44,053 nt of DNA from IMG/VR virus record IMGVR_UViG_3300046721_000236. One strand, 5' to 3'. The first letter of the stretch is position 1. Each line of letters opens with the position of its first letter. This document shows positions 1-36,552 of the stretch, piece after piece. The notes beneath the pieces are model-generated. The model saw only the letters and a program-made list of their open reading frames with translations, was not told where the DNA came from and ran no database searches. This DNA is from a virus. A program made the translations under genes and the position numbers.

Positions 1-127
1 TGGAGGAGTTGTGATCCGCATCGGCCACCGCATGCCGTGGCTGGACATTGCCATCATCGTGGCCATGGGGCTGATGCTCGGCGTGGCGATTGGCCTGTTC
101 CTGATGGGCGGCTGGCGATGATGGCCG
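1..127. repeat. Terminal direct repeat copy A, identical to 43927..44053 (circular-assembly overlap or terminal redundancy)
   Basis: Bases 1-127 (tggaggagttgtgatccgc...ggctggcgatgatggccg) recur exactly at 43927-44053. Unit length is 43926 bp. Confidence 0.95.
11..121 (+). CDS. Small hydrophobic protein (36 aa, one predicted TM helix)
   Basis: GTG start forms a GTGA overlap with the stop of the 61-aa ORF (visible in the duplicate copy at 43937). Peptide is VIRIGHRMPWLDIAIIVAMGLMLGVAIGLFLMGGWR. Its stop overlaps the next ATG (ATGA). Below the 60-aa cut-off of the ORF track. Confidence 0.4.
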   Translation: MIRIGHRMPWLDIAIIVAMGLMLGVAIGLFLMGGWR

Positions 128-231
128 CGATGTGGGCGCGGTTGCTGCGCTGGCTCTTCGTGCCATCATTCGATCCGCAGATGTCAGACGAGTGGAGAAC
201 CAATCACTTATACACGTCCGGTAAATCATAA
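118..231 (+). CDS. Small hypothetical protein (37 aa)
   Basis: Internal ATG of track ORF 37..231, in an ATGA overlap with the preceding small ORF. The upstream part of the track ORF is His/Arg/Gly-rich and looks off-frame. Confidence 0.35.
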   Translation: MMAAMWARLLRWLFVPSFDPQMSDEWRTNHLYTSGKS

Positions 232-240
232 GGAGCCGTT

Positions 241-726
241 ATGAAATCGCTTGGAATCGCCCTAATCGTTCTAATCGGCGTCAGTCTCTCGGCTCAGTCC
301 CGCTTTGTTCCCGGCAAGTATCTATCTCGGCGCGCGGCCCAGATTGTCGAAGTCGCCACTGAGGGCAATTTCCTGAAGTGGACGATTGGCTCGCATGTCT
401 TTTATTGGGGCGGCAATGGTGACATTCCTATCGAGGCGCACGATTACGACGGCGACGGCTTAGATGATCCGACGATTTACCATCCACAAACACATGAATG
501 GTGGATCTTGCGGTCACGTTGCGACGGCGGGCGCTGGACCTGCTATGACGTGCTGACGATGGCGGCCGTGCATACAAGCGCCAGTGAACCGCTGGTGTGC
601 GCGCCAGGCACGGTGCTGGCGCTGGGCGAAGGCGACCCATATTGCGCACCTCCGATCCAGACGTTTACCTGCCCGCCAGGCACGCATATCGCGCTGGGCG
701 ACGTCCTGAGCTGTGAGGCCCTATGA
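241..726 (+). CDS. Secreted protein with one FG-GAP/VCBS-like repeat and a Cys-rich C-terminus
   Basis: AAGGAG lies 5 nt upstream of the ATG. The N-terminus MKSLGIALIVLIGVSLSAQS looks like a Sec signal peptide. DYDGDGLDDPTIYHPQTHEWWIL fits the DxDGDGxxD...W FG-GAP/VCBS pattern. Confidence 0.7.
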   Translation: MKSLGIALIVLIGVSLSAQSRFVPGKYLSRRAAQIVEVATEGNFLKWTIGSHVFYWGGNGDIPIEAHDYDGDGLDDPTIYHPQTHEWWILRSRCDGGRWTCYDVLTMAAVHTSASEPLVCAPGTVLALGEGDPYCAPPIQTFTCPPGTHIALGDVLSCEAL

Positions 727-2141
727 GCGACAAGCAAATCGTGCTCATCGACTTCAGCAGCATCGCACACCCGATTTGGCATATGGCGGCGAGCGATCCG
801 AATCCCGATGCCACGTCCATCGGCATCATTGCGAAGGTACGCGCCCTGACGTCAGGCCAGCCGCATGCGGCCTTGTGCCTGGATTCGCCCAAGTCGTTCC
901 GCCGCGAGATGGACGCGACGTATAAGGCGGCGAGGGAAAGCAAGCCGGCGCCATTCTTCCATCAATGTGAGATCGCACTCGAGGCGTTGAAGGGCGACGG
1001 CTTCCCGCAATGGTCGGCGGAAGGCTTTGAAGCCGATGACATCATCGCCACCGCCGCGCGTCGGGCGATTGCCATCGGCTTTGGCGTGTCGGTATTAGTC
1101 GTCAGCGCCGATAAAGACTTGCTGCAATTGGTGAATAACCTTATCAGCGTCAAGTCGCCTATCACGGGCAACATCATGACGCCGGAGGGCGTCAGAGAGA
1201 AGTTTGGCGTGGCTCCGAATCAGATTCGCGATTACCTGACGCTGGTCGGTGATGCGTCAGACGGCGTCATCGGTGTGCGAGGTATTGGAGCAAAGACCGC
1301 GAAGGCCATGATGGGAGTGTTTGGCAACATCGACGATATGTACGCGGCTATTGACGCAGGCGACTTCGATGGACCGGGCAGCAACATTCTGAAGCCATCA
1401 CATCTCGCCACGCTGGCCGAATTTAGGAATCGCCTGCCCATCGTGCGCACGTTATTGTCCCTGCGCGAGGATGCGCCTATTGACTTTGCCCAGGTGCTGA
1501 AGGAACGCCAGCCGACCGACGGAGGAGATGAGATCATGCAGGACATCGAGAAAGCGATGCCGACGCTTACGCCAGAGGAACAAGTCGCATTTATCGAACA
1601 GGCATCAACCATCAAGCCAGAGCCGCCGCGTATGTCGCTCGTGCCGATGAACGGCGATTATGAACGCCAGCTCGAGCCTCGATCGATGAATCAAGCCGTT
1701 GAATTGTCAGGCTTGCTTCACAAGGCGCGACTCTTTAACGGTTATGGCTCGCCAGAAGCCGTGCTGTCGACGGTGCTCGCAGGCCGTGAATTAGGGATTA
1801 GCGCAATGGCGAGCCTGCGCAGCTTCCATATTGTCGAAGGGCGCCCCACGCTGGCCGCCGATGCCCTCCGCGCGCTCGTGCTGAAGTCAGGCAAGGCGAA
1901 GTCGTTCCGCTGCACCGAGCGCACGGCGCAGGCCGCGACATTCAGCACACAGCGCCAAGACGAAGAGCCGATGACGCTACGCTATACCATCGAAGAGGCG
2001 CAAGCGGCTGGCCTCGTGAAGAACGGCAGCGGTTGGACGAAGAATCCGGCCGATATGTTAGTCGCGCGAGCGTCGTCGAAGCTGGCCCGGTTGGTCTATC
2101 CTGACGTTGTGGCTGGCCTCTATGCGCCTGAGGAGTTCTAA
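723..2141 (+). CDS. 5'-3' exonuclease (FEN/PolA N-terminal type, PIN plus H3TH) fused to a RecT-like single-strand annealing domain
   Basis: N-terminal half has LIDFSS, FRREMDATYKAAR, EADDIIAT, VSADKDLLQLV and LTLVGDASDGVIGVRGIGAKTAKAMM, the FEN/53EXO motifs. C-terminal 180 aa (ELGISAMASLRSFHIVEGRPTL..., GSGWTKNPADMLVARASSKLARLVYPDVVAGLYAPEE) resembles RecT-family annealases. ATGA overlap with the upstream gene. Confidence 0.8.
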   Translation: MSDKQIVLIDFSSIAHPIWHMAASDPNPDATSIGIIAKVRALTSGQPHAALCLDSPKSFRREMDATYKAARESKPAPFFHQCEIALEALKGDGFPQWSAEGFEADDIIATAARRAIAIGFGVSVLVVSADKDLLQLVNNLISVKSPITGNIMTPEGVREKFGVAPNQIRDYLTLVGDASDGVIGVRGIGAKTAKAMMGVFGNIDDMYAAIDAGDFDGPGSNILKPSHLATLAEFRNRLPIVRTLLSLREDAPIDFAQVLKERQPTDGGDEIMQDIEKAMPTLTPEEQVAFIEQASTIKPEPPRMSLVPMNGDYERQLEPRSMNQAVELSGLLHKARLFNGYGSPEAVLSTVLAGRELGISAMASLRSFHIVEGRPTLAADALRALVLKSGKAKSFRCTERTAQAATFSTQRQDEEPMTLRYTIEEAQAAGLVKNGSGWTKNPADMLVARASSKLARLVYPDVVAGLYAPEEF

Positions 2142-2332
2142 TGCAAGCCACGATCTATGTCAGTAGCACGAAAGGGAATAATGCAGATATCGGGCGCTCG
2201 ATTGGCTTAACAGGGGAAGCGCTTGAGAATTTTTGCTATGCCTGTTATGAAGTCGCCCTCGAAGTAGACGTCGACGAAAAAACGGGGGAAGCCACAATCA
2301 TCAGCGTAGATGGTCGCAAGGTGGAACCATGA
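2141..2332 (+). CDS. Hypothetical protein (63 aa)
   Basis: ORF track. Start overlaps the previous stop (TAATG) and the stop overlaps the next start. Confidence 0.5.
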   Translation: MQATIYVSSTKGNNADIGRSIGLTGEALENFCYACYEVALEVDVDEKTGEATIISVDGRKVEP

Positions 2333-2733
2333 CGGCTTACGAGCTCGAAGCCATCGGCCTACTGAAGCGCATCGATGCCACACTGGCGGAATTGCTGGCG
2401 CTCTCGAAGTCGAAGCGAGCCGGGACACCGATGCCCGCCGCGGCGATTGACCTCGAAGGCCCCTATGGTGATCCGATCATCAAGGCGAAAGACCCGCGCG
2501 ACTGGAACGGTCCATCGATGAACGGCCGGCATCTCAGCGAATGCCCGCCGGAATATCTTGATCTGCTGGCATCTCGCTATGACTACTTCGCGGGCAAGGA
2601 AGAGGACGAGAAAAAGAAACGCTATGCCGTCATCGATGCGGCGAAGGCCCGAGCATGGGCTGCGCGGCTGCGGAGCGGCTATCAGCCAAAGGCGCCGGAG
2701 CCGATGATTGACGAGGGGCAGATCAAATGGTGA
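2329..2733 (+). CDS. Hypothetical protein (134 aa)
   Basis: ORF track. ATGA coupling upstream, balanced protein-like composition, no family recognised. Confidence 0.6.
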   Translation: MTAYELEAIGLLKRIDATLAELLALSKSKRAGTPMPAAAIDLEGPYGDPIIKAKDPRDWNGPSMNGRHLSECPPEYLDLLASRYDYFAGKEEDEKKKRYAVIDAAKARAWAARLRSGYQPKAPEPMIDEGQIKW

Positions 2734-3299
2734 CGGACGACGCCCGCACCCGACGACTCCGAGCGCTACCGCGATATTCACAGAGCAGCCTTGACGACTT
2801 GCTACTGCGCGACCCTGATGGCGATTGGGTGCGTTTCTCTGATGTGGAGGCCGTGCTGGACACCGAGGGGGACCGACAGACACCACGAGCTATCGAAAAC
2901 ATGCACGATTGCATCAATTGCAGCGAGGAAGGCGCGAAGCAGTGGGCCAATCCTCATGTCGGCCCATTTTGTGACGACTGTTACCGTTGGTTGCGCGCGG
3001 ACACCGAGGGGGAACCTGTCGCTACGAGGTTGTCGTCGCAAGATGAAGCGAGAGAATCGTTTCTGCGCGGGCATCTGGACACCGAGGGGGACCGACCGGA
3101 GCCTGATGACGCGAACGAACTGCGGACGGTGGTGCGAGATATGCGCCTCTCGGCTATCGACCGTCTCTGCGCGGACGTTCCAAAACTCTGGCCTCGTCTT
3201 TCGGCGCGGACATTTGCAGCGGTCGTCGGTGCGCTGGGGGAAATCAGCATCATCGAAGCACGCGAAGCCCTCTCACGGGCTGACACAGAGGGCGCATGA
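2727..3299 (+). CDS. DTEG-repeat protein, paralog A (190 aa, four (L/A)DTEG copies)
   Basis: Contains LDTEGDRQTP, ADTEGEPVA, LDTEGDRPEP and the C-terminal ADTEGA-stop. The N-terminal ARTRRLR block is shared with ORF 4293..4760 (19 identical nt, 2745-2763 = 4305-4323). The alternative frame 2791..3372 is Arg/Cys-rich. Confidence 0.65.
   Translation: MVTDDARTRRLRALPRYSQSSLDDLLLRDPDGDWVRFSDVEAVLDTEGDRQTPRAIENMHDCINCSEEGAKQWANPHVGPFCDDCYRWLRADTEGEPVATRLSSQDEARESFLRGHLDTEGDRPEPDDANELRTVVRDMRLSAIDRLCADVPKLWPRLSARTFAAVVGALGEISIIEAREALSRADTEGA
2849..2877 (+). repeat. DTEG element copy 1 (29 bp, identical to 4442..4470)
   Basis: ggccgtgctggacaccgagggggaccgac. Confidence 0.9.
2999..3013 (+). repeat. 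DTEG element copy 2 (15-bp core)
   Basis: ggacaccgaggggga, read in frame as DTEGE. Confidence 0.8.
3075..3096 (+). repeat. DTEG element copy 3 (22 bp, identical to 2856..2877 and 4449..4470)
   Basis: ctggacaccgagggggaccgac. Confidence 0.9.
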
Positions 3300-3934
3300 G
3301 AGTGGCGGCGCTGTTTGTCGCGCGCAATGGTCCCTACGCCAATATTCCGGCCGTCGATCTCTGGGATGCTGAACGCGATGCCAGGCTCTATCGTGGGCCG
3401 TGGCCGGTGATTGCTCATCCGCCCTGCGAGCGGTGGGGCCGGTATTGGTTCGGCGGTCCCTCGGCCCGCGTGCGACGAGTGAAGGGCGACGACGGCGGGT
3501 GCTTCGAATCGGCGTTGGCTTCCGTGCGGAAGTGGGGCGGCGTGCTTGAGCATCCAGCGGCGAGCTCGGCGTGGGCTGCCTTCGGACTCAAAGAACCACC
3601 GAGGGCCGGTGGCTGGATTGTGGCGGATTGGGAGGGCGGCTGGACGTGTTGCGTAGATCAGGGCCACTACGGTCACCGAGCCCAGAAGGCTACCTGGCTC
3701 TACGCCGTTGCGGTGCCGCTCCCAATGCTTCGATGGGGGAAGTCAGACCGACGTATCCGGCTCGATGACGGCTATGACTCGCGCGAGGAACGACGGCGGA
3801 AAATTAGGACCGGGACGTGTCAGCGGCTTTCGCAGCGCGAACGTGCCGAAACGCCAGCGGCCTTCCGAGACGTGCTGATGTCGATGGCACTCAAAGCGGA
3901 ACTACCAGACACCGAAGGGAAACGTGCGGTATGA
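3296..3934 (+). CDS. Cytosine-C5 methyltransferase-like protein with a degenerate SAM-binding motif and a C-terminal PDTEG tail
   Basis: IAHPPCERW resembles motif IV (PC). GGVLEHP resembles motif VI (ENV). HYGHRAQKATWLY resembles motif VIII. RLSQRERAETPAAFRDVL resembles motif IX. The N-terminus ALFVARNGPYA sits where FxGxG is expected. ATGA overlaps at both ends. Confidence 0.4.
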   Translation: MRVAALFVARNGPYANIPAVDLWDAERDARLYRGPWPVIAHPPCERWGRYWFGGPSARVRRVKGDDGGCFESALASVRKWGGVLEHPAASSAWAAFGLKEPPRAGGWIVADWEGGWTCCVDQGHYGHRAQKATWLYAVAVPLPMLRWGKSDRRIRLDDGYDSREERRRKIRTGTCQRLSQRERAETPAAFRDVLMSMALKAELPDTEGKRAV

Positions 3935-4296
3935 CTCAACGCGAACCGTCTGGCCTGTATGTCTATCAGCCACTCGCGCCGACGAAGGCAAACCCAGAGC
4001 CGAAGATCGTCGCAGGCATCGAATATTTCTGGGTTGGCGATGAGGAAGATTCACAGTGTGCGCGGTGTGGTAGTTCGACTTATGCCGTGGGCTGTTGGAA
4101 CTGCGGCGGTGAGGGGTTCCTGGAGGATGAGGACGACTGGGAAGGCGACCCAGACGGCAGGCGTTGCGACATCTGCGGCGGGGATGGTGGCTGGCAACGG
4201 TGCTGCTCATCCCGCGAATTCTGTGATGCTCATCCGATGCCTGGCCGTGAAGCGATTAAATCCTCAGCGCGCGAGAACTGGGAAGGCGAAGAATGA
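3931..4296 (+). CDS. Cys-rich zinc-finger protein with DnaJ-type CxxCxGxG motifs (121 aa)
   Basis: Internal ATG of track ORF 3817..4296, in an ATGA overlap with the upstream stop. Contains CARCGSS, CWNCGGEG and CDICGGDG. Confidence 0.6.
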   Translation: MTQREPSGLYVYQPLAPTKANPEPKIVAGIEYFWVGDEEDSQCARCGSSTYAVGCWNCGGEGFLEDEDDWEGDPDGRRCDICGGDGGWQRCCSSREFCDAHPMPGREAIKSSARENWEGEE

Positions 4297-4760
4297 CTGA
4301 TGAACGCACCCGACGACTCCGAGAGCTAGAAGCCATCGCGCAGGAAATCGAAGCGGCTTCGCTGTATCTCGACAAGCCTAACTATCCTATCAAGCCCCTA
4401 TGTTCAGACGACTTGAGGGAATGGGCGAAGCGTTTACGTGCGGCCGTGCTGGACACCGAGGGGGACCGACCAGCACCGACAATTGAAGAAGCGGACCTGT
4501 ATAAGCTCGCGGCAAAGGTCGCACATCAGCAGGAGACATGCCCATCAGCGCGAACGAGTGGCCCCTGCAAGTCCTGCGTCAATCGCGTGGACTTCGCCCG
4601 CTTATGTATCTTGCGGTTACGGTTACGGGCGGACACCGAGGGGGACGCCAGCCCAGCGCCCTCGATTTGCCCGAGCTATATCTGCCCGGTCTGCTATCAC
4701 GAAAAGGACCGCTGTTCGCATTGCGATACCGCGCTCCCTGATCCTCCGGTGCAGCCATGA
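4293..4760 (+). CDS. DTEG-repeat protein, paralog B (155 aa, two DTEG copies, Cys-rich C-terminus)
   Basis: Contains LDTEGDRPAP and ADTEGDASP, shares the N-terminal RTRRLRE block with paralog A, and has a CPxxxxxxCKSC ... CPSYICPVCYHEKDRCSHC cluster. Confidence 0.65.
   Translation: MTDERTRRLRELEAIAQEIEAASLYLDKPNYPIKPLCSDDLREWAKRLRAAVLDTEGDRPAPTIEEADLYKLAAKVAHQQETCPSARTSGPCKSCVNRVDFARLCILRLRLRADTEGDASPAPSICPSYICPVCYHEKDRCSHCDTALPDPPVQP
4442..4470 (+). repeat. DTEG element copy 4 (29 bp, identical to 2849..2877)
   Basis: ggccgtgctggacaccgagggggaccgac. Confidence 0.9.
4631..4646 (+). repeat. DTEG element copy 5 (16-bp core)
   Basis: ggacaccgagggggac. Confidence 0.8.
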
Positions 4761-4779
4761 CGGAAAAGGAGAAACGACC

Positions 4780-4962
4780 ATGCTGATGAGTCTCATTCGC
4801 GCCGGTCGCTGGGGTGACCTGCATTCCGAGCGCAAGACACTCTGGCTGATTGCCGTCGTCATCCTCGTCGGCACATCAGGCACCTATCTACACGCCGCCT
4901 CCGTTTCGGTCGGCTGGTGGGATATGTGGTACGCCTTCTGGGAATGGCTCTACACCCTGTGA
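4780..4962 (+). CDS. Small membrane protein (60 aa)
   Basis: AAAGGAG at 4765-4771 precedes ATG 4780. Peptide MLMSLIRAGRWGDLHSERKTLWLIAVVILVGTSGTYL...WWDMWYAFWEWLYTL has one TM helix plus an aromatic tail. It is the C-terminal part of track ORF 4438..4962. Confidence 0.6.
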   Translation: MLMSLIRAGRWGDLHSERKTLWLIAVVILVGTSGTYLHAASVSVGWWDMWYAFWEWLYTL

Positions 4963-5243
4963 GGCGCCTCTCGCTGGCCCTACTGCTATTATTCGGCCTC
5001 TTCGTCGCTGTGCGTGCCGAAGAGGCCAGCAGCGAAGACAAGCTCCGTCTGCAAGTCGTGCTCCTGCGTGGCGAACTGGCCGAGGCGCTAAAGGCACATG
5101 CGAAGTGTGAAGCCGAAGGCTCCGCCGCCACGAAGCAGTTGCAGCAAGCGCAAACAGAAGGGCAGGCGCTCGTCAAGGCGCTCGAGGCCCGCGGCTTGAC
5201 CGTTAATCAGCAGAATGAGATTGTCACCAAGCCCGCGCCTTAA
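4917..5243 (+). CDS. Signal-peptide or TM-anchored coiled-coil protein (Rz/i-spanin-like architecture)
   Basis: RRLSLALLLLFGLFVAVRA is followed by a heptad-like EEASSEDKLRLQVVLLRGELAEALKAHAK...QQAQTEGQALVKALEA. The true start may be GTG 4959 (GTGA overlap with the upstream stop) or ATG 4944. Confidence 0.55.
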   Translation: MGYVVRLLGMALHPVRRLSLALLLLFGLFVAVRAEEASSEDKLRLQVVLLRGELAEALKAHAKCEAEGSAATKQLQQAQTEGQALVKALEARGLTVNQQNEIVTKPAP

Positions 5244-6319
5244 AAGCCGCGGCAGAGGACGTAGAGCTTATCGCCCGCAATGTAGTTGCCATCGATCTCG
5301 ACGGCTGTCGTGCTCGTAGCCACGTTCAGCACATACGCCGCCCCGACCGTTTGGGCCGAGACGGTGCAGACCGGCGCGGTTGCATACGCGGGGCTAAATG
5401 TCGCAAAGCCGGTGCCTGCCACGCCTGCGCCAATCGTCACGATGAACGCATAATTGCGGCCGGCAATCGCCCGTCCTGCGCCACCCCATCCCCCGCCGAC
5501 CGTGGGAGCCCCGGAACTATCCGTCACGTTGCCTGTGCTGCCCACGAGGAGATTGCCACTCACTGACAGATTAGACGTCGCCGGATCAATCGTATTGCCA
5601 ATGCTCACGCCCCCGGAGGCATGGAGGCGCATGGCTTCCGCGCTGCCGGTATAGAACCGAATCGGGGCCGACACGCTCGTGAGAATCGATAAGCCCCCGA
5701 CCCCGATCGCCGCCAGCGTCGAGCCATTCGCGAGAAATGGCCCACTCGGCGTAAAGGTTGACGATTGCGATTGCAGCACGGTCAGTCCCGCATTCGCATC
5801 GTTCCCAATCAAGAGGCGTGTCGCATTGCCTACGCCAGCCGTCGTATTGCGAATCATCAGATCTTGAAGGCCGGCGCCCCCCGCACTGATCGCATGGGCG
5901 CCAAATCCAGTGACGGTCAGAATGCCGCTCACCGTCGTGCTGCCAGCCACAGTCACCAAGGACCCTGATTCCGACACCAAGCTATCGCTCAATGATGTCG
6001 GCGACATGAATTTGCTATGCGTCCCTGTCGTGCCACTGACGGACGATCCAGAGGCAAGGCCGATGCCGTTAAAGAATAACGATCCAGCCACCGAATACAG
6101 CTTATTGGCCGTGATTGCAGGCGCCCCGCTGGGCAAGACGATCGAAGCTGTTGTGATGCCGCTGCCAGCGGCCGGCGTCGAGCTGCCCAGCGGACACCCG
6201 ACACAGATGGACGTAGGCGCCTGTGACGTGGTCGTCAGCGTCGTAAACGCGCCCGGTCGTGGCTGCGCCGATGCGGAGGCAGCGACGAGCAACACGCAGA
6301 GCGTCAGCCAGATTCTCAT
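5240..6319 (-). CDS. Gly/Ser/Thr-rich fibre-like protein with an N-terminal signal-peptide-like segment
   Basis: MRIWLTLCVLLVAASASA-QPRPG is followed by a long G/S/T/A-rich beta-type sequence. It is the last gene of the virion array and has an ATGA overlap upstream. Confidence 0.6.
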   Translation of the reverse strand: MRIWLTLCVLLVAASASAQPRPGAFTTLTTTSQAPTSICVGCPLGSSTPAAGSGITTASIVLPSGAPAITANKLYSVAGSLFFNGIGLASGSSVSGTTGTHSKFMSPTSLSDSLVSESGSLVTVAGSTTVSGILTVTGFGAHAISAGGAGLQDLMIRNTTAGVGNATRLLIGNDANAGLTVLQSQSSTFTPSGPFLANGSTLAAIGVGGLSILTSVSAPIRFYTGSAEAMRLHASGGVSIGNTIDPATSNLSVSGNLLVGSTGNVTDSSGAPTVGGGWGGAGRAIAGRNYAFIVTIGAGVAGTGFATFSPAYATAPVCTVSAQTVGAAYVLNVATSTTAVEIDGNYIAGDKLYVLCRGF

Positions 6320-7002
6320 GCGGGAACCTTAACTAATTGAATGGCCCAGGCGAAGCCGGAGCCCGTATCGACTTTCGCTTTGATGCCGTAGTTCTTCACG
6401 CTGCCGCCTGCCGCAAACGTAATGGGGCCGCTCGTGATGACGTTGCCGGCGGCGTTTGAGCCCGACATCTCGACGATTGGCGTATCGGGCGCCCCATCCG
6501 TCAGATTGACGAGCGCGACCGTCACGATGGCCGCGCCGAGCGTGCTCAAGGCCATGCCTTGCAGCTTATAGGTGCCCGGTGCCAAGTTGGCGCTATCCAG
6601 CGGATAGATCGCTGTGCCCGCGTGGCAACTGGCGAAGGTCGGCCCGAGCGGATAGCCGGTCGTAATCGGTGAGGTCGGATCGCCCGCGAAGTTGAAGACG
6701 TCGTAAACGCCGGATTGCGTCAGACCGACAGAGCCGACCGGGTCGGTGGAATCAATGACCACGCCGAGGGCATCCGTCAGAATGAATTTATAGGACTGCG
6801 CAGCGAGGTAAATCTTGTAGCGCCCGCCGCTGCTGAGGACGATGGGGTTGGCGTTGGGAACAAGCAGATCGGCATCGGTCCACGTCGTCGCGGGCGTCGA
6901 GGTGCCCGCCGCATAGGTCCATAAGAAGCCACCATCCAGCGGAAAGCCGTTATCGTCCAGCGCTTGCGGAAAGGCATACGGCGCTAAAGTGCCCAGACTC
7001 AC
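6316..7002 (-). CDS. Tail fibre/tailspike-type protein (conserved N-terminal fibre domain)
   Basis: FPQALDDNGFPLDGGFLWTYAAGTSTPATTWTDADLLVPNANPIVLSSGGRYKIYLAAQSYKFILTDALGVVIDSTDPV matches the widespread phage fibre/spike N-terminal pattern (D.nG.PL.gG.l..Y.AGT.TP..T..D......N.NP..L...G.y...). Confidence 0.65.
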   Translation of the reverse strand: MSLGTLAPYAFPQALDDNGFPLDGGFLWTYAAGTSTPATTWTDADLLVPNANPIVLSSGGRYKIYLAAQSYKFILTDALGVVIDSTDPVGSVGLTQSGVYDVFNFAGDPTSPITTGYPLGPTFASCHAGTAIYPLDSANLAPGTYKLQGMALSTLGAAIVTVALVNLTDGAPDTPIVEMSGSNAAGNVITSGPITFAAGGSVKNYGIKAKVDTGSGFAWAIQLVKVPA

Positions 7003-8513
7003 GGATTCCCCCCATACTTCGGCATCAGCGACTTTTGGCCTCGACGTGCCCGCGCGGCCATGTCGGCGTTCATCTCGGCTTCTGATTTAAAGCCGGGGTT
7101 GCTTTTCAGCAACTGTTCAGCCGGATTCGCTGGCGGTGGCGGGCGATTGCCGAGCACCGTCTTCAGCGCCTCATCCGGGGCCACGCCGCGCTTAATGAGC
7201 ATGGCGGCATTGTTGACTTCAGCCGCCTGCGGGGCCACCTTGGCCGTATCGAAGGCGTTCAGCGCTGCCTTGAAGGCCTCCGGCGTCGACATCGGCGCCG
7301 CCTCTGGCATGCGTTTAATAATGGCTTGTAGATTGTCAGCGACTGGCTGGCCATTCGCCATTGCCTGTTTAACGACCTGCGATGGATCTAAATGCGCCGA
7401 AACAGGCGTTTCGCCAAGAGGAATCATGCCCGTAACGGTCCCATCAGCGCCTTTCGCGACAATGGCCTCATAGCCGTATTTCTCGCGCACGATCTGCGCC
7501 GCTTCTTGCAATGTCGTCGGTTGGCGCCCGAGGGCTGTTTTCGCCAAGTCAATCAGTTGCGATTCGGCCCCGTGTAACGTCTTGACCGTTAATGTTTTCT
7601 CAGGGATGGGCACATCGGCTGCATGCACCTTCCCGGTAAACTCTTCGGGGCCAATGCCGCCGACATCATGCGTGGCATATCCAGCCGCCCACGCCGGATC
7701 TGTCGTCATCATGGTGCCCGGTTGTAAGGTTGGACGTGCCGAGGTCGAACCGTGATAGACCCGCACGGTTTGAGGTGCGGCCTCAGGAGCCACTGAGGCA
7801 GGCCCAGCGGGCGTAGGCGAGGCGACCGGCGCCGGCGTAGGGGCTTGGGCCTGTGGCGCGGCTGGACGCGCCTCGAGGGTCGCAGCGAGGTCTGGCTTGA
7901 CGTTCCCATGCGCCGCCGCATTCTCCGCCGTTAACCGCGCCGTCAGTTCGGCTGGCGTCTCAACGACGGCTGGCGCGACGTCGGCCAAGGGCCGGGCGCC
8001 GACGTCCTGCAGGAATCGACCCCCGCTCTGCAACACTTTTCCCGCAGCGGTGGCCGCGGGCGGCGCACCGGCCGCAATGGCCGCTTTCCCGAGATTCCCA
8101 CTGAGGGCGGCATAGCCAGCGCCATACGTGCCAATGCGCTGCGCGATCTTGGAAGCGCCCAAGGCTTCCAGGCCCTTCCCCACCGTCTCGGCTCCGCTGC
8201 CCGCCGCTCGAGCAGCCGCGCGGGCTCCTGTCACGACACCTGCGGCATCAGGGACGAGCAGACTGGCAATATCGGCAATCGTTTCCGGCCGCGCGACTTT
8301 CTCGAGCACCGGCTTCAGTTCGTTGTTAAACCAGTCCTGAAAGCCGCTCGACGCTTCCGGCGAGCCAGACGTGGCTGCCGAGGCCCGCCCTTCCGCCAGC
8401 ACATTGCGCGGCTGGTAGGGCGGCGTATAGCCCTTAATCACCTTACCGATGTTCTCTTCGGGCTCGCCCGCGTCAATCATCCGCTGCACGATGGCCTTGA
8501 GCTCGTCAGGCAT
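6999..8513 (-). CDS. Putative internal virion/ejection protein with a possible ART-like central domain
   Basis: Sits in the block after the gp10-like gene. Has an Ala/Pro-rich linker, then VRVYHGSTS...MMTTDPAWAAGYATH...KYGYEAIVAKGADG, reminiscent of H-Y-E type ART domains found in phage polyvalent proteins. Confidence 0.45.
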   Translation of the reverse strand: MPDELKAIVQRMIDAGEPEENIGKVIKGYTPPYQPRNVLAEGRASAATSGSPEASSGFQDWFNNELKPVLEKVARPETIADIASLLVPDAAGVVTGARAAARAAGSGAETVGKGLEALGASKIAQRIGTYGAGYAALSGNLGKAAIAAGAPPAATAAGKVLQSGGRFLQDVGARPLADVAPAVVETPAELTARLTAENAAAHGNVKPDLAATLEARPAAPQAQAPTPAPVASPTPAGPASVAPEAAPQTVRVYHGSTSARPTLQPGTMMTTDPAWAAGYATHDVGGIGPEEFTGKVHAADVPIPEKTLTVKTLHGAESQLIDLAKTALGRQPTTLQEAAQIVREKYGYEAIVAKGADGTVTGMIPLGETPVSAHLDPSQVVKQAMANGQPVADNLQAIIKRMPEAAPMSTPEAFKAALNAFDTAKVAPQAAEVNNAAMLIKRGVAPDEALKTVLGNRPPPPANPAEQLLKSNPGFKSEAEMNADMAARARRGQKSLMPKYGGNP

Positions 8514-12838: not shown

Positions 12839-14262
12839 GACGGTCCCACGCTCACATCAATCAACGCATCGACCCAGCGCGACGGCACGGGATCTGTATC
12901 GATGAAGCGGTCGACCCGATTGCGCGCCTGCCCGCACTGCGTCCAGCGCACCCGCGTATCAAAGGCGCCAATGGCCCCGCTCGAGGCCCACTGTTCATTA
13001 CCCCATGTCTGCCCGCCATCCTTCGAGGTCTGCCGCATAATCTGCGGGTCCGAGCCTTGCCCGCGCTGCACGCCTTGGCCGACGTCCATCACGAGTTGGA
13101 TCGCATGCGTCGTGAACCGCTTCTGGTCAAACGACAATCGCGGCGGCTGCCGTAGACGACGAATCGCCGCGCCGTCCACATCGGTAAACAAATCCGTGCC
13201 CATCCGGTAGATCGCCCCCGTTAAGCGGTCCTGCACCAGATTCCGATCGGGATGGGCGAAGAACATCGGCCGATAGGCCAGCCATTGTGCCTGCCGCGTA
13301 TCCCAATACAACCGTTCGTGCCACAGGCTCGTGGCTTGGTCGAACACCCAGGTCCGTTCGGCGCTGGGGAACGTCAGCACATAGAAGGTGTGGCCGTTCT
13401 CCTGATAACTGAATGCCACGGCATCCGAGAGATCGCCATACGTCGCGATCGACGCTTCCACGGCATGTGTACTGATGCGGCTGGGCGTATAGCCAGAGGC
13501 CGACACTACCTGCCCATGGCCCTGCTCATTATGCGAGAGCCAGATCAGCGACTTATCCAGCCGCGCGCCCGAAAACGCGGCGGCCGTGCCCGTCTGCATA
13601 AACGCCTCTTGAATCGAGGCGAAGGGAAACGGCGCCGTCCCGGCGTCATACCAGACTTCTGAGGTGTGATCCCCGAGCAGATAGATCAGACGATTGACGA
13701 CATACAGAGCCCGCCAGGGGTCGCTGCCGTCCGTGCGCTGCTGGATGTTTCCGAGGTCGATACTCAGGAAATTCTCGAATGCCGTCACTTGCAGGGTAGA
13801 AGAGGTGGCATCGAGAATGACGCCAAACCCATCCAGAAAGCCGCACATCGTGGCGCCCAGCGTGGTCGGATTCTGAAAGACGTTCGTGATCAGGTCCAAC
13901 ACATAAAACTGATTACCGCTCGTCAGGCCGAGCTGATTCCCAGCATCCCCGTTGGACATGAACGTGACGGGCGAGGCGTTGCGTTCGATGATGCCACGCT
14001 GCACGGCGGTATTGCCGACGAGCTCGTAGAGCGTAAACCCCGTGACGAAAAACGTCCGCTCGCCGAGGGAAAACATCCCGCCGCCGAAATTCGCCGTGGG
14101 GGCCACAATCAATTCAAAGCCGGGACACTGAAGGAGCGCCCCCGGCGTTGGGGCCGTCTGCGATTCGTTCAACTCGACATAGCGATTGATCAGGCGTTCG
14201 GCATCGGCCATATACGATTGGCTTTGATACGACGGGCCGAGGAAGCCGGGATACTGGGGCAT
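12835..14262 (-). CDS. P22 gp10-like tail hub / packaged-DNA stabilisation protein
   Basis: 475 aa. N-terminus MPQYPGFLGPSYQSQS... and C-terminus ...SKDGGQTWGNEQWASSGAIGAFDTRVRWTQCGQARNRVDRF follow the P22 gp10 pattern (S.DG..yG.E...Y..RV.W...G..R). Confidence 0.65.
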   Translation of the reverse strand: MPQYPGFLGPSYQSQSYMADAERLINRYVELNESQTAPTPGALLQCPGFELIVAPTANFGGGMFSLGERTFFVTGFTLYELVGNTAVQRGIIERNASPVTFMSNGDAGNQLGLTSGNQFYVLDLITNVFQNPTTLGATMCGFLDGFGVILDATSSTLQVTAFENFLSIDLGNIQQRTDGSDPWRALYVVNRLIYLLGDHTSEVWYDAGTAPFPFASIQEAFMQTGTAAAFSGARLDKSLIWLSHNEQGHGQVVSASGYTPSRISTHAVEASIATYGDLSDAVAFSYQENGHTFYVLTFPSAERTWVFDQATSLWHERLYWDTRQAQWLAYRPMFFAHPDRNLVQDRLTGAIYRMGTDLFTDVDGAAIRRLRQPPRLSFDQKRFTTHAIQLVMDVGQGVQRGQGSDPQIMRQTSKDGGQTWGNEQWASSGAIGAFDTRVRWTQCGQARNRVDRFIDTDPVPSRWVDALIDVSVGPS

Positions 14263-32881: not shown

Positions 32882-33069
32882 TTGCCGTCTCGCAGGATTT
32901 CCAGTTTGGCTTCAATCTCGCGGATATCGGACGCCGCATCCTGCACGGCATGCCAGTCGCCCGATTCCAGCTTGATCTGACAATAGGCAATCAGGCCCGC
33001 TTTCCGCTTCTGGAGTTCGACGATCAGTCGATCTTGCGGATTTGGCGAAAACTTCGTCGCGGTATTCAT
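32878..33069 (-). CDS. Hypothetical helical protein (63 aa)
   Basis: ORF track. ATGA/GTGA overlaps on both sides. Confidence 0.5.
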   Translation of the reverse strand: MNTATKFSPNPQDRLIVELQKRKAGLIAYCQIKLESGDWHAVQDAASDIREIEAKLEILRDGK

Positions 33070-34244
33070 TGCCCACTTCCGTTCGGCTGCGCCTGCTGCT
33101 GGGCGGCTATGGTAGCACCAACCGCCGGGGGCAGCAGGCCATACTTCTTCAGGATGTCGATCGTCTTCGCATCGAACACAACGAAATTACGCGACACATT
33201 CCCGGCGGCCTCGGCGGCCTTTTCGGCAGCAGCTTGTGTCGGGTATGGTGTCATCGAACCTTTAATAAACCAGTTGTCGCCTAGTTTGTTCACGCCTGCC
33301 GTAATACGCGAGCCCTGATCGAGATATTTGATGCCGGGGATGCCTGCTTCTTTCAGTTCCAGCGATGCCACGTTTGGCCCTGCTATGCCTTCATCCTGTT
33401 TGAGCCGGTCAGCAATATGGTGATATGCCTCAGCGCCGGTCATAGTGTCGCGGGGAGGCGGTTTCCAAAATCCTCCGCTACTCATATACCGCTCTTGCGC
33501 GTTTGGTAGGAGCAGAGCTTTAACTTTTTCCTGCACGTCAGGATGCTGTTGACTCAGCGGCTTATCCCAATCGAGGAACTGATCCGGGTGCGCGTTGATC
33601 CCCACTTCATACATCTTTGGCGTATTGACCTGAATCAGCGAGGGATCAACGCTTTGCATTGTCTTGATTCTTGATTGCCACAACGCCGCTTGATCTGGCG
33701 CATACGTTTTATTGAAATCAACGGCTTTTTGCGCTTCGGCCATCCATGCGTCTTTACCCATCGCTTTCATATCCGCTAGATCGCGATGCATGGATGTGCC
33801 AGAGGGATATTCAATATTCTGATATCTCACCGGCGCAGCATCGCGGGCTGATCCTGTAAAGGCCTTCTTATACTCCTCAGCCACCTGTGGATTTTCCGCG
33901 AAATACAACCCGTGCCCGTAGGCTTGCGCGCCTTCCCCCGTCCCGATCTTGCTCGTATCGAATGCCTCGAAATCATGCGGGCTTCCGTGATACGCCTTGA
34001 TCGCCGCTGCAAATCGTGGGAACCGCTGCGCCACCGCATCAATCAGCCCGCCGCCCATCGGCCCGACATCCATCGCCGCGCCGACGCCCATCACCTGTTG
34101 CGGATCATCCAGCCCGAGCCAGCTCACCATCTTCCGTAAAATGCCCTGCCCAGGCGCATCGAACACCGACGCGCCATGCGGGTTGATACTCGCGGGCAGC
34201 TCCGGCTTCTGGATGACGAGCGGATTAGGCACCGCCGCCCCCAT
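33066..34244 (-). CDS. ART-PolyVal-like ADP-ribosyltransferase-domain protein encoded next to the portal gene
   Basis: AIKAYHGSPHDFEAFDTSKIGTGEGAQAYGHGLYFAENPQVAEEY (H and Y elements) and the distal LKEAGIPGIKYLDQGSR...NFVVFDAKTIDILKKY. Start set at ATG 34244. The track extension to 34328 is Arg-rich and lies inside the portal gene. Confidence 0.55.
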   Translation of the reverse strand: MGAAVPNPLVIQKPELPASINPHGASVFDAPGQGILRKMVSWLGLDDPQQVMGVGAAMDVGPMGGGLIDAVAQRFPRFAAAIKAYHGSPHDFEAFDTSKIGTGEGAQAYGHGLYFAENPQVAEEYKKAFTGSARDAAPVRYQNIEYPSGTSMHRDLADMKAMGKDAWMAEAQKAVDFNKTYAPDQAALWQSRIKTMQSVDPSLIQVNTPKMYEVGINAHPDQFLDWDKPLSQQHPDVQEKVKALLLPNAQERYMSSGGFWKPPPRDTMTGAEAYHHIADRLKQDEGIAGPNVASLELKEAGIPGIKYLDQGSRITAGVNKLGDNWFIKGSMTPYPTQAAAEKAAEAAGNVSRNFVVFDAKTIDILKKYGLLPPAVGATIAAQQQAQPNGSGQ

Positions 34245-36552
34245 TCGGTTGCTGCTTCGCTTGTTCCGCCGCCTGTTGCGCCATCTCCGCTTGATGCGCC
34301 TGATCGCTTTCCTGCGCCTGCTGGTCAATCACGGCGCCCTGCGATCCCTGCTCCAAGGCTTGCTGATGCGCCTGCGCCGCGAGATCCTTTTCATGCTGCT
34401 GCTTCATGCCTTGCATGCCGACCTCGTGCGCGTGCTGCAAACCCGTCGCGAGCCGTTCTTCCGCTGCCTCCGCCACTGGATCCAGCTGCGACTTGCTGGC
34501 CGAGATACGCGCGACGGCGATCGAAGTCGCGTTCTTCATCATTTGCAGCGCCAATTCCCGATCCGCATCCGTGTCAGCTTTATGCTTCGCAATCTGTAAA
34601 TCGGTCTGCGCCTTGATCTGCGTCTCCTGCAAACTGCCCTGCTGCTCGGCCTGCTTCGTCTGAATGAACTGCTGCGCCTTCTGCAACTCAGCCTGCATCT
34701 GCTGCATCTGCGCCTGCACAGCCGGCGGAATCTGCGGCTGATCGTTTTTGTCCTGCAACTGCGGCGGCAGCGCGTTCCGCAGCTTCTCCGCAATCTTGTG
34801 ACTACCCGGAAACGACAACTGCTCCACGTAATCCGGCGTGGCCACGGCGGCCATCTCTGGCGGCAGATGCGGAATCAGTTCGCCCAGCGCCTGCGCGCCC
34901 TCTTCCCGCTTCGTCGCCGTCGCCTTCCCGACCGAGACGGTCACGGCATAGCGCCCGTTGTTCAAGTCGTAAAACTTGTGCAGGCTGCCCTCGAGCTGCG
35001 CGATTTCCGGCGTGATGTTCGGCGGCGAGGGTTGCGGCTGCCCGTTCGGCCCCTCCTGGTAGGGCTGACCGACCATGACCTGTTCAGGCTCATCGTCCAT
35101 CCCCAGAATGTGAATAATCTGCCCCTTCGTCGTAATCTTCGGGATGATCTCGACCGCCAATTCCCCCGCGTAAATCAGCGCCCGCTTCACATTGTCTGGG
35201 TAATTACTGTTGGCGAGGTCTGATTGCGCCTGCAAGGCTTGCAACGCCCGCCCGCTCCGCTCGTTCGGGTTTGTATTCCCCAGTGACGCATCGCCCGTCG
35301 ACGTCGTCGCCTTAATCGCATCCTCGCTGACCCGCATCAATTCCACGGCGGCCTGGATCGGCGGCTCCGTCGTATCCAGCATCGGCGTCGGATACTCTTT
35401 CCCTTCCTGGTCCCACGGGTCAAACGGCAGATACGCGTGATTGATGATATTGCGCGTCTGCCAAATCTGCTTATAGTTTGCCACGCTCGCCGCCGCAATC
35501 ATCGGCGCGTTCTTCGGCGCCAGCGCGAAAATCTCCACGGCGCCGCTATACGTGTAGTTCACCATCCGCTGCGCGTCCATGCCCTCTTCAATCACGCCGC
35601 GCAGCCAGATCTTCCCGTCCACGTTCAACTCTTCGCCCAGAATCGGAATCAGCGGAATCCGCGAGCCGACCCAATCGAACGACTGCAACGATTGCACGGC
35701 GTTGATGATGTCGCACTTCACGCTGGGCACTTGCATGACGCGTTCAGCTTTGATGTCTTTCTTGTCATCAGGCTTTTCTTCAGTGACGGTCCCGTCTTGC
35801 AGTTGATACAGATGGCGCTTCGTGTAGACGATGCGGTAATACTCGGCAATCCTGATGCTCTCTTCACTCACCCATGAGGACCACTTCGACATATCGCCCG
35901 TGGACATGAAGGCCTCAAGCCCGCGCAGGTCCGCATCCGGCCACTTCCGTTCGTGCTCGTCCTTCGAGATATCATTCGTGACGAACGCCCAGCCCATATC
36001 GGAATATGTCGGCAGAACTGCCGAGGGATCACGATACACGCTCAGATTGTTCGTAATGCGCTCCATTCGCAGCGCCTGCCACATGGCCTCTTCGGTCAGC
36101 TCCCCGTCCCACGTCTCGTTGATGTAATCCGTGCGCAGCCGGAACCAGCCGATCCCGCCCTCAATCGCTTGGTCGGCCGCCCATTCAATCGGGGATTCCC
36201 CACGGCTGTTGTTCATCATCCAGCGCAGATAGCCCTTAAAGATATCGGCCGTATCCTGGTCGCTTGTGCCACCCGCCGGCAGCACGTCGAACCCAAAGCT
36301 GGCATTCTTGATGGTGTTGCTCACTTGCCGCACCGGCTGCGACAACCGATCGACCACGAGGCACGGCCGCGGTGGCTGCGGCGCCATCCCCTGCAGGCTG
36401 TTCCCGCCTTCGCGCGCCAGCTTAATCGCCGCCGGCCACTGGTCGCCCACCCGAAACTGTTTCGCGCGCACGATGCGATTGCGCTGCTGCTCTTCGGCTT
36501 CCGCCGCTCGGTTCCAGCGTTCGCGCGCTTCGCGAATCAGATCCTTCGCCAC
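34225..36552 (-). CDS. Portal protein (P22 gp1-like) with a Gln/Ala-rich C-terminal barrel
   Basis: GIGWFRLRTDY, IRIAEYYRIV, IPLIPILGEE and DAQRMVNY parallel P22 portal GVGAWRLVTDY, IQIAEFYEV, IPIVPVFGEW and DGQRLRNM. Has a long Q/A-rich helical tail. Confidence 0.85.
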   Translation of the reverse strand: MAKDLIREARERWNRAAEAEEQQRNRIVRAKQFRVGDQWPAAIKLAREGGNSLQGMAPQPPRPCLVVDRLSQPVRQVSNTIKNASFGFDVLPAGGTSDQDTADIFKGYLRWMMNNSRGESPIEWAADQAIEGGIGWFRLRTDYINETWDGELTEEAMWQALRMERITNNLSVYRDPSAVLPTYSDMGWAFVTNDISKDEHERKWPDADLRGLEAFMSTGDMSKWSSWVSEESIRIAEYYRIVYTKRHLYQLQDGTVTEEKPDDKKDIKAERVMQVPSVKCDIINAVQSLQSFDWVGSRIPLIPILGEELNVDGKIWLRGVIEEGMDAQRMVNYTYSGAVEIFALAPKNAPMIAAASVANYKQIWQTRNIINHAYLPFDPWDQEGKEYPTPMLDTTEPPIQAAVELMRVSEDAIKATTSTGDASLGNTNPNERSGRALQALQAQSDLANSNYPDNVKRALIYAGELAVEIIPKITTKGQIIHILGMDDEPEQVMVGQPYQEGPNGQPQPSPPNITPEIAQLEGSLHKFYDLNNGRYAVTVSVGKATATKREEGAQALGELIPHLPPEMAAVATPDYVEQLSFPGSHKIAEKLRNALPPQLQDKNDQPQIPPAVQAQMQQMQAELQKAQQFIQTKQAEQQGSLQETQIKAQTDLQIAKHKADTDADRELALQMMKNATSIAVARISASKSQLDPVAEAAEERLATGLQHAHEVGMQGMKQQHEKDLAAQAHQQALEQGSQGAVIDQQAQESDQAHQAEMAQQAAEQAKQQPNGGGGA

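Follow-up and report, generated by a model that had tools for sequence, protein, structure and literature searches.

A short DNA element in fixed codon phase at the module boundaries of small early phage proteins

Repeated blocks in two early genes

The 44,053-nt stretch of DNA analysed here in full (IMG/VR record IMGVR_UViG_3300046721_000236; ‘the window’) is a 44-kb tailed-phage genome of 61% GC, encoding a portal, a major head protein, a large terminase and a head-closure protein. Its early region contains two genes for small proteins of one family, in which a short DNA element recurs, always in one codon phase, between different protein modules. The core of this element, the 16-mer GGACACCGAGGGGGAC, occurs exactly at 2858, 3077, 4451 and 4631 and with one mismatch at 2999, each time on the + strand. 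All five copies lie within 2858–4646 and none was found elsewhere in the 44 kb; five matches were reached in 0/100 shuffles. Spacing between successive cores in the window is 141, 78, 1374 and 180 bp, and elsewhere 75–700 bp.

Family gene 1 (2727–3299, + strand) is an open reading frame (ORF) of 190 amino acids (aa). Just past its start codon lies an N-terminal block, N-block 1 (2745–2768, + strand, CGCACCCGACGACTCCGAG, read as RTRRLRA), recognised by its identity to 4305–4323. There follow module A, linker 1 (2849–2882, core 2858–2873, type GCCGTGCTG-core-CGACAG, AVLDTEGDRQ), the Cys-rich module B, linker 2 (2990–3023, core 2999–3014 with the single mismatch, RADTEGE), module C, linker 3 (3068–3101, core 3077–3092, HLDTEGDRP) and module D, the gene closing with a decayed linker plus stop codon (3276–3299, CGGGCTGACACAGAGGGCGCATGA, RADTEGA-stop) that overlaps the ATG of the next gene. 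Family gene 2 (4293–4760, + strand, 155 aa; relatives P0012–P0016) is built likewise: N-block 2 (4305–4328), a module, linker 5 (4442–4475, core 4451–4466, AVLDTEGDRP), a module, linker 6 (4622–4655, core 4631–4646, of the RADTEGDASPAP type that is usually the last linker of a gene), a Cys-rich module and a C-terminal stop block, the C-block (4734–4760, CTCCCTGATCCTCCGGTGCAGCCATGA, LPDPPVQP-stop), whose ATGA overlap can start a following gene. The linkers, all on the + strand, were located by scanning for the core (linker 6 also by linker typing), the decayed linker by its recurrence as the same DNA in contig L054, and the C-block by a scan for LPDPPVQP-stop. Neither family protein has a Pfam or PHROG family match.

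A preliminary description, made from the letters of this DNA, had reported identities of 29 bp (2849–2877 and 4442–4470), 22 bp (3075–3096 and 2856–2877) and 19 bp (2745–2763 and 4305–4323), all of which are correct as to both length and position. Its count of seven D-T-E-G copies in ORFs 2727–3299, 3296–3934 and 4293–4760 was likewise recovered: every copy is read in one and the same phase of the ORF that contains it, the core copies reading D-T-E-G-D/E. Of the two degenerate copies included in that count, one stood and one did not stand so well. The copy at 3282–3293 is a genuine decayed linker at a gene end, since it is base-for-base the same in L054 and has the typical CGGGC upstream. The copy at 3908–3919, a weakly linker-like GACACCGAAGGG in the 10-residue tail of the 3296–3934 product, is a doubtful member of the set, because it is missing from the closest orthologue (L054, ending PIEAERAI-stop) and because homologues in sequenced phages do not extend over the tail. 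Reading the 44 kb in all six frames gives only one further D-T-E-G, at 14124–14135 on the + strand (GACACTGAAGGA), within a 47-aa ORF opposite the head-closure gene region; it recurs in L023 (oriented) at 11477 and is a by-product of the conserved opposite-strand gene, not a linker.

The copies are not identical through codon bias, because ACC, GGG and CGA are minority codons in this phage (0.24, 0.26 and 0.11 respectively) and the chance of DTEGD being encoded by exactly these codons is 0.0055 per copy. No tRNA genes that might explain the choice of CGA and GGG were found.

Two further genes on the + strand separate the family genes. The first (3296–3934) matches phrog_12600, of unknown function (1e-60), and its homologues in Pseudomonas, Caulobacter, Ralstonia and Xanthomonas phages align with it as far as about residue 201. 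It had been labelled methyltransferase-like, a label that remains unverified, as one deposited record alone names a homologue N6-adenine methyltransferase. The second (3934–4296) encodes a Cys-rich protein of 120 aa that has no linkers and no family match. Together they look like one inserted unit having a decayed linker as its left border; module D and the phrog_12600 gene are adjacent in L054 also, at 97.6% identity. Directly upstream of the array is a conserved gene of 134 aa (2329–2733, + strand; 10 orthologues), and before it a 472-aa ORF (723–2141, + strand) in which a PolA-type 5′–3′ exonuclease (Pfam 5_3_exonuc_N and 5_3_exonuc) is fused to a RecT-like annealase (PHROG), an unusual one-polypeptide recombination module. 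Orthologues of this exonuclease-RecT fusion stand upstream of the array in many family loci.

Directly after the stop block a small hydrophobic protein of 60 aa (MLMSLIRAGRW…) is encoded at 4780–4962 (+ strand), and its homologues adjoin family arrays in L055 and L060, on either side. The region 4734–4800 combines the stop block, with its CCTCC (anti-Shine-Dalgarno-like), DPP proline motif and ATGA overlap, with a subsequent AAGGAG and the next ATG. By its arrangement it could serve as a translational-coupling device; folding of the region gave no significant structure. Far from the array, beside the portal gene, a 420-aa protein (33066–34328, − strand) contains an ART-PolyVal ADP-ribosyltransferase domain (E = 3e-8) and is probably a virion-delivered effector.

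Conservation of the blocks among phages

The element is present in about 25 viral or metagenomic contigs, as the same DNA and in the same codon phase. A scan of IMG/VR for the exact 16-mer gave 43 loci, about half of which were chance matches in unrelated genes; some 20 loci have two to five copies, all in the DTEGD phase and all inside ORFs of 130–320 aa. The exact core was seen in 52/69 distinct copies. In an alignment of 50 distinct copies, positions −1 to +14 were 94–100% conserved, partial conservation extended from −10 to +25 and background was reached beyond −12 and +26; the third codon positions of the core were no more variable than the first and second. The partly conserved flanks consist of GCCGTGCTG or CGGGCG upstream and of CGAC(A/C)G(GAGCC), GCCAGCCC or CCGCCGACGC downstream. 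The preliminary description had expected a functionless duplication to betray itself in relatives by a missing motif, a variable phase or free drift; what the relatives have is the opposite, a motif that is present, constant in phase and without drift.

Neither blastn of window positions 1–8000 nor tblastn of the 155-aa protein found a match among 50,697 phage records; no cultured relative is to hand. Scanning with a 20-mer gave two matches in genome contigs and three in JGI metagenomes, one being a family member (L050) and the rest chance. The 20-mer stands by chance in two Actinobacterial-type hemC genes (porphobilinogen deaminase; L048, 719–738, and L049, − strand, 4052), because a VDTEGDR motif there happens to use the same codons. 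Three extra loci from an N-block scan (L051–L053) were rejected as chance matches in another frame.

How far the phages themselves have diverged can be judged from the 134-aa gene, used here as a yardstick for neutral divergence. Among its 10 orthologues, most of them 87–99% and two 62–69% identical to the window's protein, third-position identity is 0.60 and the same codon is used for 0.64 of identical residues. Backbone genes of the family phages (exonuclease-RecT, the 134-aa gene, tail genes) are 69–93% identical to those of the window, and in module pairs whose interiors have diverged to 0.68 identity the linker cores remain identical at 140/144 positions (97%). Since backbones, the 134-aa gene and the interiors of old modules have all diverged and the core has been kept, its identity does not reflect recent common descent. 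Contigs L046, L061 and L063 carry the element yet have no other gene in common with the window; no non-family gene was found common to all four, and the 134-aa gene is not conserved beside the array in L046.

These data bear on the simplest explanation, that the repeats arose by a recent internal duplication or by chance and mean nothing. In layout the two host genes are indeed paralogous, as a duplication would have it. Nevertheless, we give this explanation practically no credence: shuffled sequence never reached five copies, the blocks are shared base for base with about 25 contigs of different projects and backbones in which the surrounding DNA is unrelated, and this cross-phage sharing refutes it.

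A second junction allele, CCGAGGGAGACACC, reading (A)PEGDT, is the same in L061 (6562–6576) and in L063 (at about 5176 and 5326), contigs that are unrelated and of 46% and 62% GC. Its sequence suggests a DTEGD-T linker that has been permuted or has diverged.

Family proteins form 71 clusters at 90% identity, all annotated ‘hypothetical’. Their common layout is an N-terminal M(T)DDARTRRLR(E/A)L, variable segments between DTEGD linkers and a C-terminal LPDPPVQP-stop, and the two terminal blocks are conserved in the same manner as the linkers. The N-block DNA CGCACCCGACGACTCCGAG (RTRRLRE), which contains three rare CGA codons, begins 16 distinct family genes in other contigs. A codon-agnostic scan of IMG/VR for LPDPPVQP-stop recovered family loci only, with the DNA CTCCCTGATCCTCCGGTGCAGCCATGA identical in 15/16 distinct copies. 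The family genes form tandem arrays, for in L012 and L035 the TGA of the stop block overlaps the ATG that begins the next family gene.

Whether DNA or peptide is the conserved unit can be asked of the variants. Single-base variants within the D-T-E-G codons comprise seven non-synonymous changes (D>A, D>N, G>W, three G>E and E>stop) versus three synonymous ones, and protein variants such as DIEG, DAEG, DTEW, DTEE and AEGD are common in the wider family, NTEG being a further variant that is tolerated. The pattern, read from the aligned copies, fits constraint on DNA or homogenisation, and not purifying selection on a peptide. The consensus has no stop in any of its six frames, and the constant phase therefore does not stem from avoidance of stop codons; such a phase is to be expected where copies spread through recombination and out-of-frame products are lost. 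The preliminary description had offered two interpretations, which part company at this point. A DNA- or RNA-level role or gene conversion is strongly supported, given the proportion of exact copies and the invariance of third positions, which equals that of the other two. The second interpretation, a short linear peptide motif, for which the argument had been the synonymous changes in the window's two degenerate copies, is unsupported, as variants in relatives are mostly non-synonymous and one of those two copies is doubtful.

The peptide explanation nonetheless deserves weighing. It holds that (L/A)DTEGD(R/A)P is itself functional, as a flexible inter-domain linker or as a protease, docking or modification site by which the modules of a small polyprotein are released or organised, and that recent spread has left the DNA identical as a side effect. 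In every case the motif is in phase and lies between modules, it is followed by Pro-rich residues, and the synonymous changes in the degenerate copies are of the kind this would predict. In a structure model of the 190-aa protein the helices seem to stop immediately ahead of the linkers, although at a pLDDT of 49 the model is too poor for a fold search. Some modules are Lar-like, DUF3850 or DUF551, and larger multi-domain polyvalent phage proteins have been proposed to be processed by peptidase domains (PMC5512222). Set against this are synonymous sites that stay invariant while neighbouring genes lost 40% of third-position identity, the 97% retention of the core in old module pairs, the non-preferred codons of the core, and the tolerance of mostly non-synonymous variants. 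No protease gene was seen among the window ORFs scanned, and the start and stop blocks are equally invariant as DNA, which a cleavage site would not explain. A functional peptide is, on this evidence, an unlikely primary cause.

Re-assortment of modules at the blocks

Diversity between the blocks is extensive. Splitting 43 proteins at their linkers yielded 131 modules in 59 clusters, 27 of which recur, many with different neighbours. Modules are 20–125 aa in size and include Cys-rich, zinc-ribbon-like pieces and helical pieces, and relatives carry DUF3850, DUF551 and Lar-like (Lar_restr_allev) modules. Those of the window's 190-aa protein were found apart from one another: A in P0003 and L017, B in P0002 and L013, C in P0004, P0006 and P0007, and D in P0001. 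P0006 equals P0007 plus two modules inserted exactly between linkers, and P0012 and P0013 have a common C-terminal module behind unrelated N-terminal parts.

Breaks in homology coincide with the blocks. Within 2727–4760, homology to relatives is limited to the blocks and a few modules, and it ends at 2768, 2858, 3013, 3096, 4629 and 4731–4734, all on blocks. Homology to L013 (94%) spans exactly core 1 to core 2 (2858–3013), that to L046 (84%) runs from linker 2 to linker 3 (2994–3096), and the last module of family gene 2 is 91% identical to L017 from linker to C-block (4629–4740). Across all family loci, 155/258 homology ends inside arrays fell within 8 nt of a block, compared with 21% expected, the pairs compared being non-independent. 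Within one and the same phage pair, common modules often exceed the backbone in similarity (98.6 against 85.1, 94.3 against 83.6 and 88.3 against 76.5), and other segments are less similar; modules thus have their own histories. Upstream and downstream extensions of the linker combine in many ways, a free combination that places crossovers within the core. The position of linkers is less free, AVL-type linkers tending to come first and ASPAP or PPTP types last.

In one relative base composition, too, changes at a linker. In L061, a phage contig of 46% GC, the family gene (6001–6714) is a GC-rich island whose first three modules have 54–61% GC, and the module past the last linker, at 44% GC, matches the background of the contig. 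To judge by base composition, this gene is a chimera joined at a linker.

Two linkers in relatives have altered reading. In L035 (oriented, 5141–5170) a linker contains an in-frame TAG (GGACACCTAGGGGGAC) followed 8 nt later by an ATG, splitting one family gene in two, with the purine run of the linker in the position expected of a ribosome-binding site; in L012 and L013 that same downstream module (MNENRDA…) is instead joined on in frame. This is a gene fission, and it indicates that a linker can become an intercistronic junction. In L022 (oriented, 9670) the G-run of a linker is longer by one (GGGGG to GGGGGG), so that the frame is shifted and the ORF runs on for about 80 codons, which could represent a frameshift mutation or homopolymer slippage.

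The purine run GAGGGGGA present in the linker in general resembles a ribosome-binding site. Internal translation starts past it were considered and rejected, a start codon following in only about three copies. An overlapping gene in another frame was rejected too: the long +1 ORFs of the window (2791–3372 and 4438–4962) have no counterpart in relatives, where in most copies the other frames stay open for only about 15–70 codons.

These features nevertheless invite the explanation that the element is a cis-acting DNA or RNA signal, namely an oriented, stoperator-like binding site for a phage regulator, a host Chi-like hotspot or a translational pause (through GAGGGGGA plus the rare CGA, in the linker stretch GAGGGGGAC CGA), its phase having been inherited by duplication. 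Invariance at the DNA level and strict strand orientation accord with it, as do the ribosome-binding-site-like purine run and the L035 linker with its TAG and nearby ATG, the three CGA codons of the N-block and the one of the linker, and the fact that the variant linker CCGAGGGAGACACC likewise retains a GAGGGAGA run. Searches for such a signal gave little: between 2000 and 5500 there were 0 sigma-70-like promoters and 0 terminator-like sites, Rfam gave no match, folding was no better than that of shuffled sequence (z-scores −0.06 to +1.39), and no dyad symmetry in the element was seen by eye. The copies are spaced irregularly (by 78–1374 bp) and keep to a single gene family, not being scattered along the genome, they occur in backbones without a common candidate regulator, and too few are followed by a start codon. 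A binding site would have no need of one phase throughout about 70 copies, and would leave the breaks in homology exactly there without explanation. We therefore regard a cis-acting signal as the improbable source of the pattern.

Several known repeat systems were compared, and all but stoperators were set aside. Replication-origin iterons were rejected, as spacing is irregular and copies follow module boundaries. For stoperators the picture is mixed, in that the orientation with transcription fits and the dispersal does not, all copies lying in 2 kb. The spacers of a CRISPR array would here be 60–1350 bp and coding. Rickettsia palindromic elements, also in frame, are 100–150 bp long, as against an element of 16–36 bp with no hairpin, whose host genes are not otherwise conserved. 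A shufflon or other site-specific cassette was rejected given that all copies are direct, that there is no recombinase among scanned ORFs and that no gene is linked to the arrays across backbones.

The last of these touches on a more general proposal, a dedicated, programmed shuffling of cassettes in which a specific recombinase or nuclease reads the 16-bp core, as in a shufflon or integron, and rearranges the array at high frequency. The invariant core is sharper than homology-driven exchange alone predicts, and the recombined extensions do place crossovers inside it. We consider programmed shuffling very improbable all the same. The window ORFs scanned yielded no tyrosine or serine recombinase, integrase or homing nuclease; across backbones the arrays have no constant companion gene; the copies are direct repeats devoid of dyad symmetry; three different block sequences behave alike; and the array is identical in nine contigs of one phage from five samples.

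Proposed junctions for module exchange, their precedents and meaning

Taken together, the observations are, on balance, probably best explained if the element is a phase-locked microhomology junction, at which modules are shuffled and cassettes exchanged by general or RecT-type recombination. Directly supported here are the invariance at the DNA level, the constant phase, the re-assortment of modules, the placing of breakpoints on blocks, the lateral transfer of modules and the compositional chimera at a linker. Small early proteins would be assembled from unrelated modules, every boundary being the same short DNA block in the same phase, drawn from a set comprising a start block (ATG..CGCACCCGACGACTCCGAG), one or more linkers (core GGACACCGAGGGGGAC) and a stop block (CTCCCTGATCCTCCGGTGCAGCCATGA). 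Because paralogues within a genome carry the same blocks, and so do co-infecting relatives, recombination across 16–37 bp, whether homologous or by single-strand annealing, could insert, delete or swap modules, always in frame. Repeated exchange would copy the blocks too, as gene conversion, keeping synonymous sites identical, and modules with mutated flanks would stop spreading.

The enzyme would be the exonuclease-RecT fusion at 723–2141 or a host pathway; the fusion could plausibly act as catalyst, short homologies being enough for systems of this kind. Recombineering with lambda Red and RecET, with its minimal homology lengths, is the basis for supposing that 16–37 bp would be enough. The proteins would serve host take-over or counter-defence, making diversification useful, a role suggested by the Lar-like, DUF551 and DUF3850 modules of relatives together with the position in the early region.

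A number of points weigh against exchange at microhomology junctions. No recombination event was observed directly, and nine contigs encoding P0008, which represent one phage in five samples, are 100% identical in the array, with no within-population variants (an apparent difference among them is due to gene calling only). A 16-bp invariant core is short for recombination of the RecA type, and in L046, L061 and L063 the sampled flanks lack the exonuclease-RecT gene. The excess of breakpoints at blocks is partly expected when conserved islands sit in unrelated DNA. That a block is conserved because it recombines is an evolutionary argument, to which a function of the DNA, RNA or peptide may add; the positional grammar of linkers (AVL first, ASPAP or PPTP last) could reflect needs at the protein level, and the changes in the window's two degenerate copies, three in number and all synonymous, may point to a degree of constraint on the peptide.

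A bolder version can be put forward only tentatively. The start, linker and stop blocks might be a universal set of phase-locked adaptors, kept by selection on the mobility of cassettes, through which unrelated phages draw on a common pool of mini-domains, a phage counterpart of exon shuffling with symmetric intron phases. It is conceivable, if far from assured, that phages of 46–62% GC and with different replication modules in this way combinatorially build new early proteins, probably for counter-defence. Gene fusion and fission at the same junction, as at the TAG and ATG of L035, may possibly belong to such a system as well, though we would not press the point.

The literature yielded nothing relevant on DTEGD, and no description of the element or of the protein family was found. 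The principle is known from phage precedents. In gp38 of T-even phages, conserved glycine-rich motifs (GRMs) separate hypervariable segments, with exchange in or near the motifs (PMC3157838), and such GRMs of T2/T6-type tail-fibre adhesins, like conserved motifs of T-even gene 37, have been described (Tetart et al. 1996, 1998; Trojet et al. 2011, PMC3157838). As there, short and strictly conserved in-frame motifs alternate with hypervariable segments, and a library of interchangeable segments is shared. The motifs of gp38, however, also make up the structural core of one folded virion domain and the order of its segments is fixed, whereas the blocks described here connect domains that are unrelated and differ greatly in size, in proteins that are early and non-structural; modules enter, leave and move from gene to gene and from one backbone to another unrelated one, start and stop blocks complete the set, and invariance has been quantified at the DNA level. 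Homology to gp38 or tail-fibre adhesins is not indicated, the family genes having no Pfam or PHROG match and lying in the early region beside exonuclease-RecT.

PeSLs of T4-type phages, ‘mobile regulatory cassettes’, are repeated promoter-terminator units through which small early genes are shuffled as modules (Arbiol et al. 2010, PMC2839356; PMC4122927). Here too repeated short conserved sequences flank novel small genes in hyperplastic early regions, with recombination between copies. PeSLs, though, are intergenic units of promoter and stem-loop terminator, in contrast to blocks that lie inside ORFs in a fixed phase, have no promoter, terminator or hairpin, and serve the shuffling of protein domains and not of whole genes only. 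In the polyvalent proteins that phages and conjugative elements encode, disparate small domains are brought together in varying architectures (Iyer et al. 2017, PMC5512222). They resemble the present family as multi-domain conflict proteins and in the Lar-like, DUF551 and DUF3850 modules of its members in relatives, and differ in being mostly large, delivered with the DNA and possessed of a specific domain inventory. The window's two family proteins have no recognised domain, its ART-PolyVal protein (33066–34328) is a separate gene, and a universal DNA junction was not found described for polyvalent proteins in the literature.

Cellular systems offer more distant parallels. At the VENN (CdiA) and PxxxxDPxGL (Rhs) pre-toxin junctions, a short conserved peptide and DNA boundary allows variable C-terminal cassettes to be swapped, through homologous recombination, with ‘orphan’ modules. 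Such polymorphic toxins have one junction per protein, form toxin-immunity pairs and belong to bacterial secretion systems, unlike the family proteins, beside which no immunity genes or toxin domains were seen. The conserved segments between minicassettes of Neisseria pilE/pilS and the 17-bp repeats of Borrelia vls are in-frame anchors for gene conversion. Conversion there is unidirectional, from silent loci to one expression site in a cellular genome, and involves specific cis elements and RecA, whereas no store of silent cassettes is evident here. The present element is a member of none of those families: it differs from the phage precedents in joining unrelated domains, in its set of start, linker and stop blocks, in its placement in early genes, in its spread over unrelated backbones and in lacking promoter-terminator structure.

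Mosaicism of phages is usually traced between genes; within genes there are few examples of junctions that look designed, and those few belong to tail-fibre adhesins. A junction of 16–37 bp in a fixed phase, kept base for base across dozens of unrelated modules and unrelated backbones, represents an unusually clean case of natural domain shuffling by microhomology. It offers a natural template for in-frame, recombination-ready linkers in phage engineering, and the element also gives a key by which a pool of early-protein modules, uncharacterised and in part related to restriction alleviation, can be searched for.

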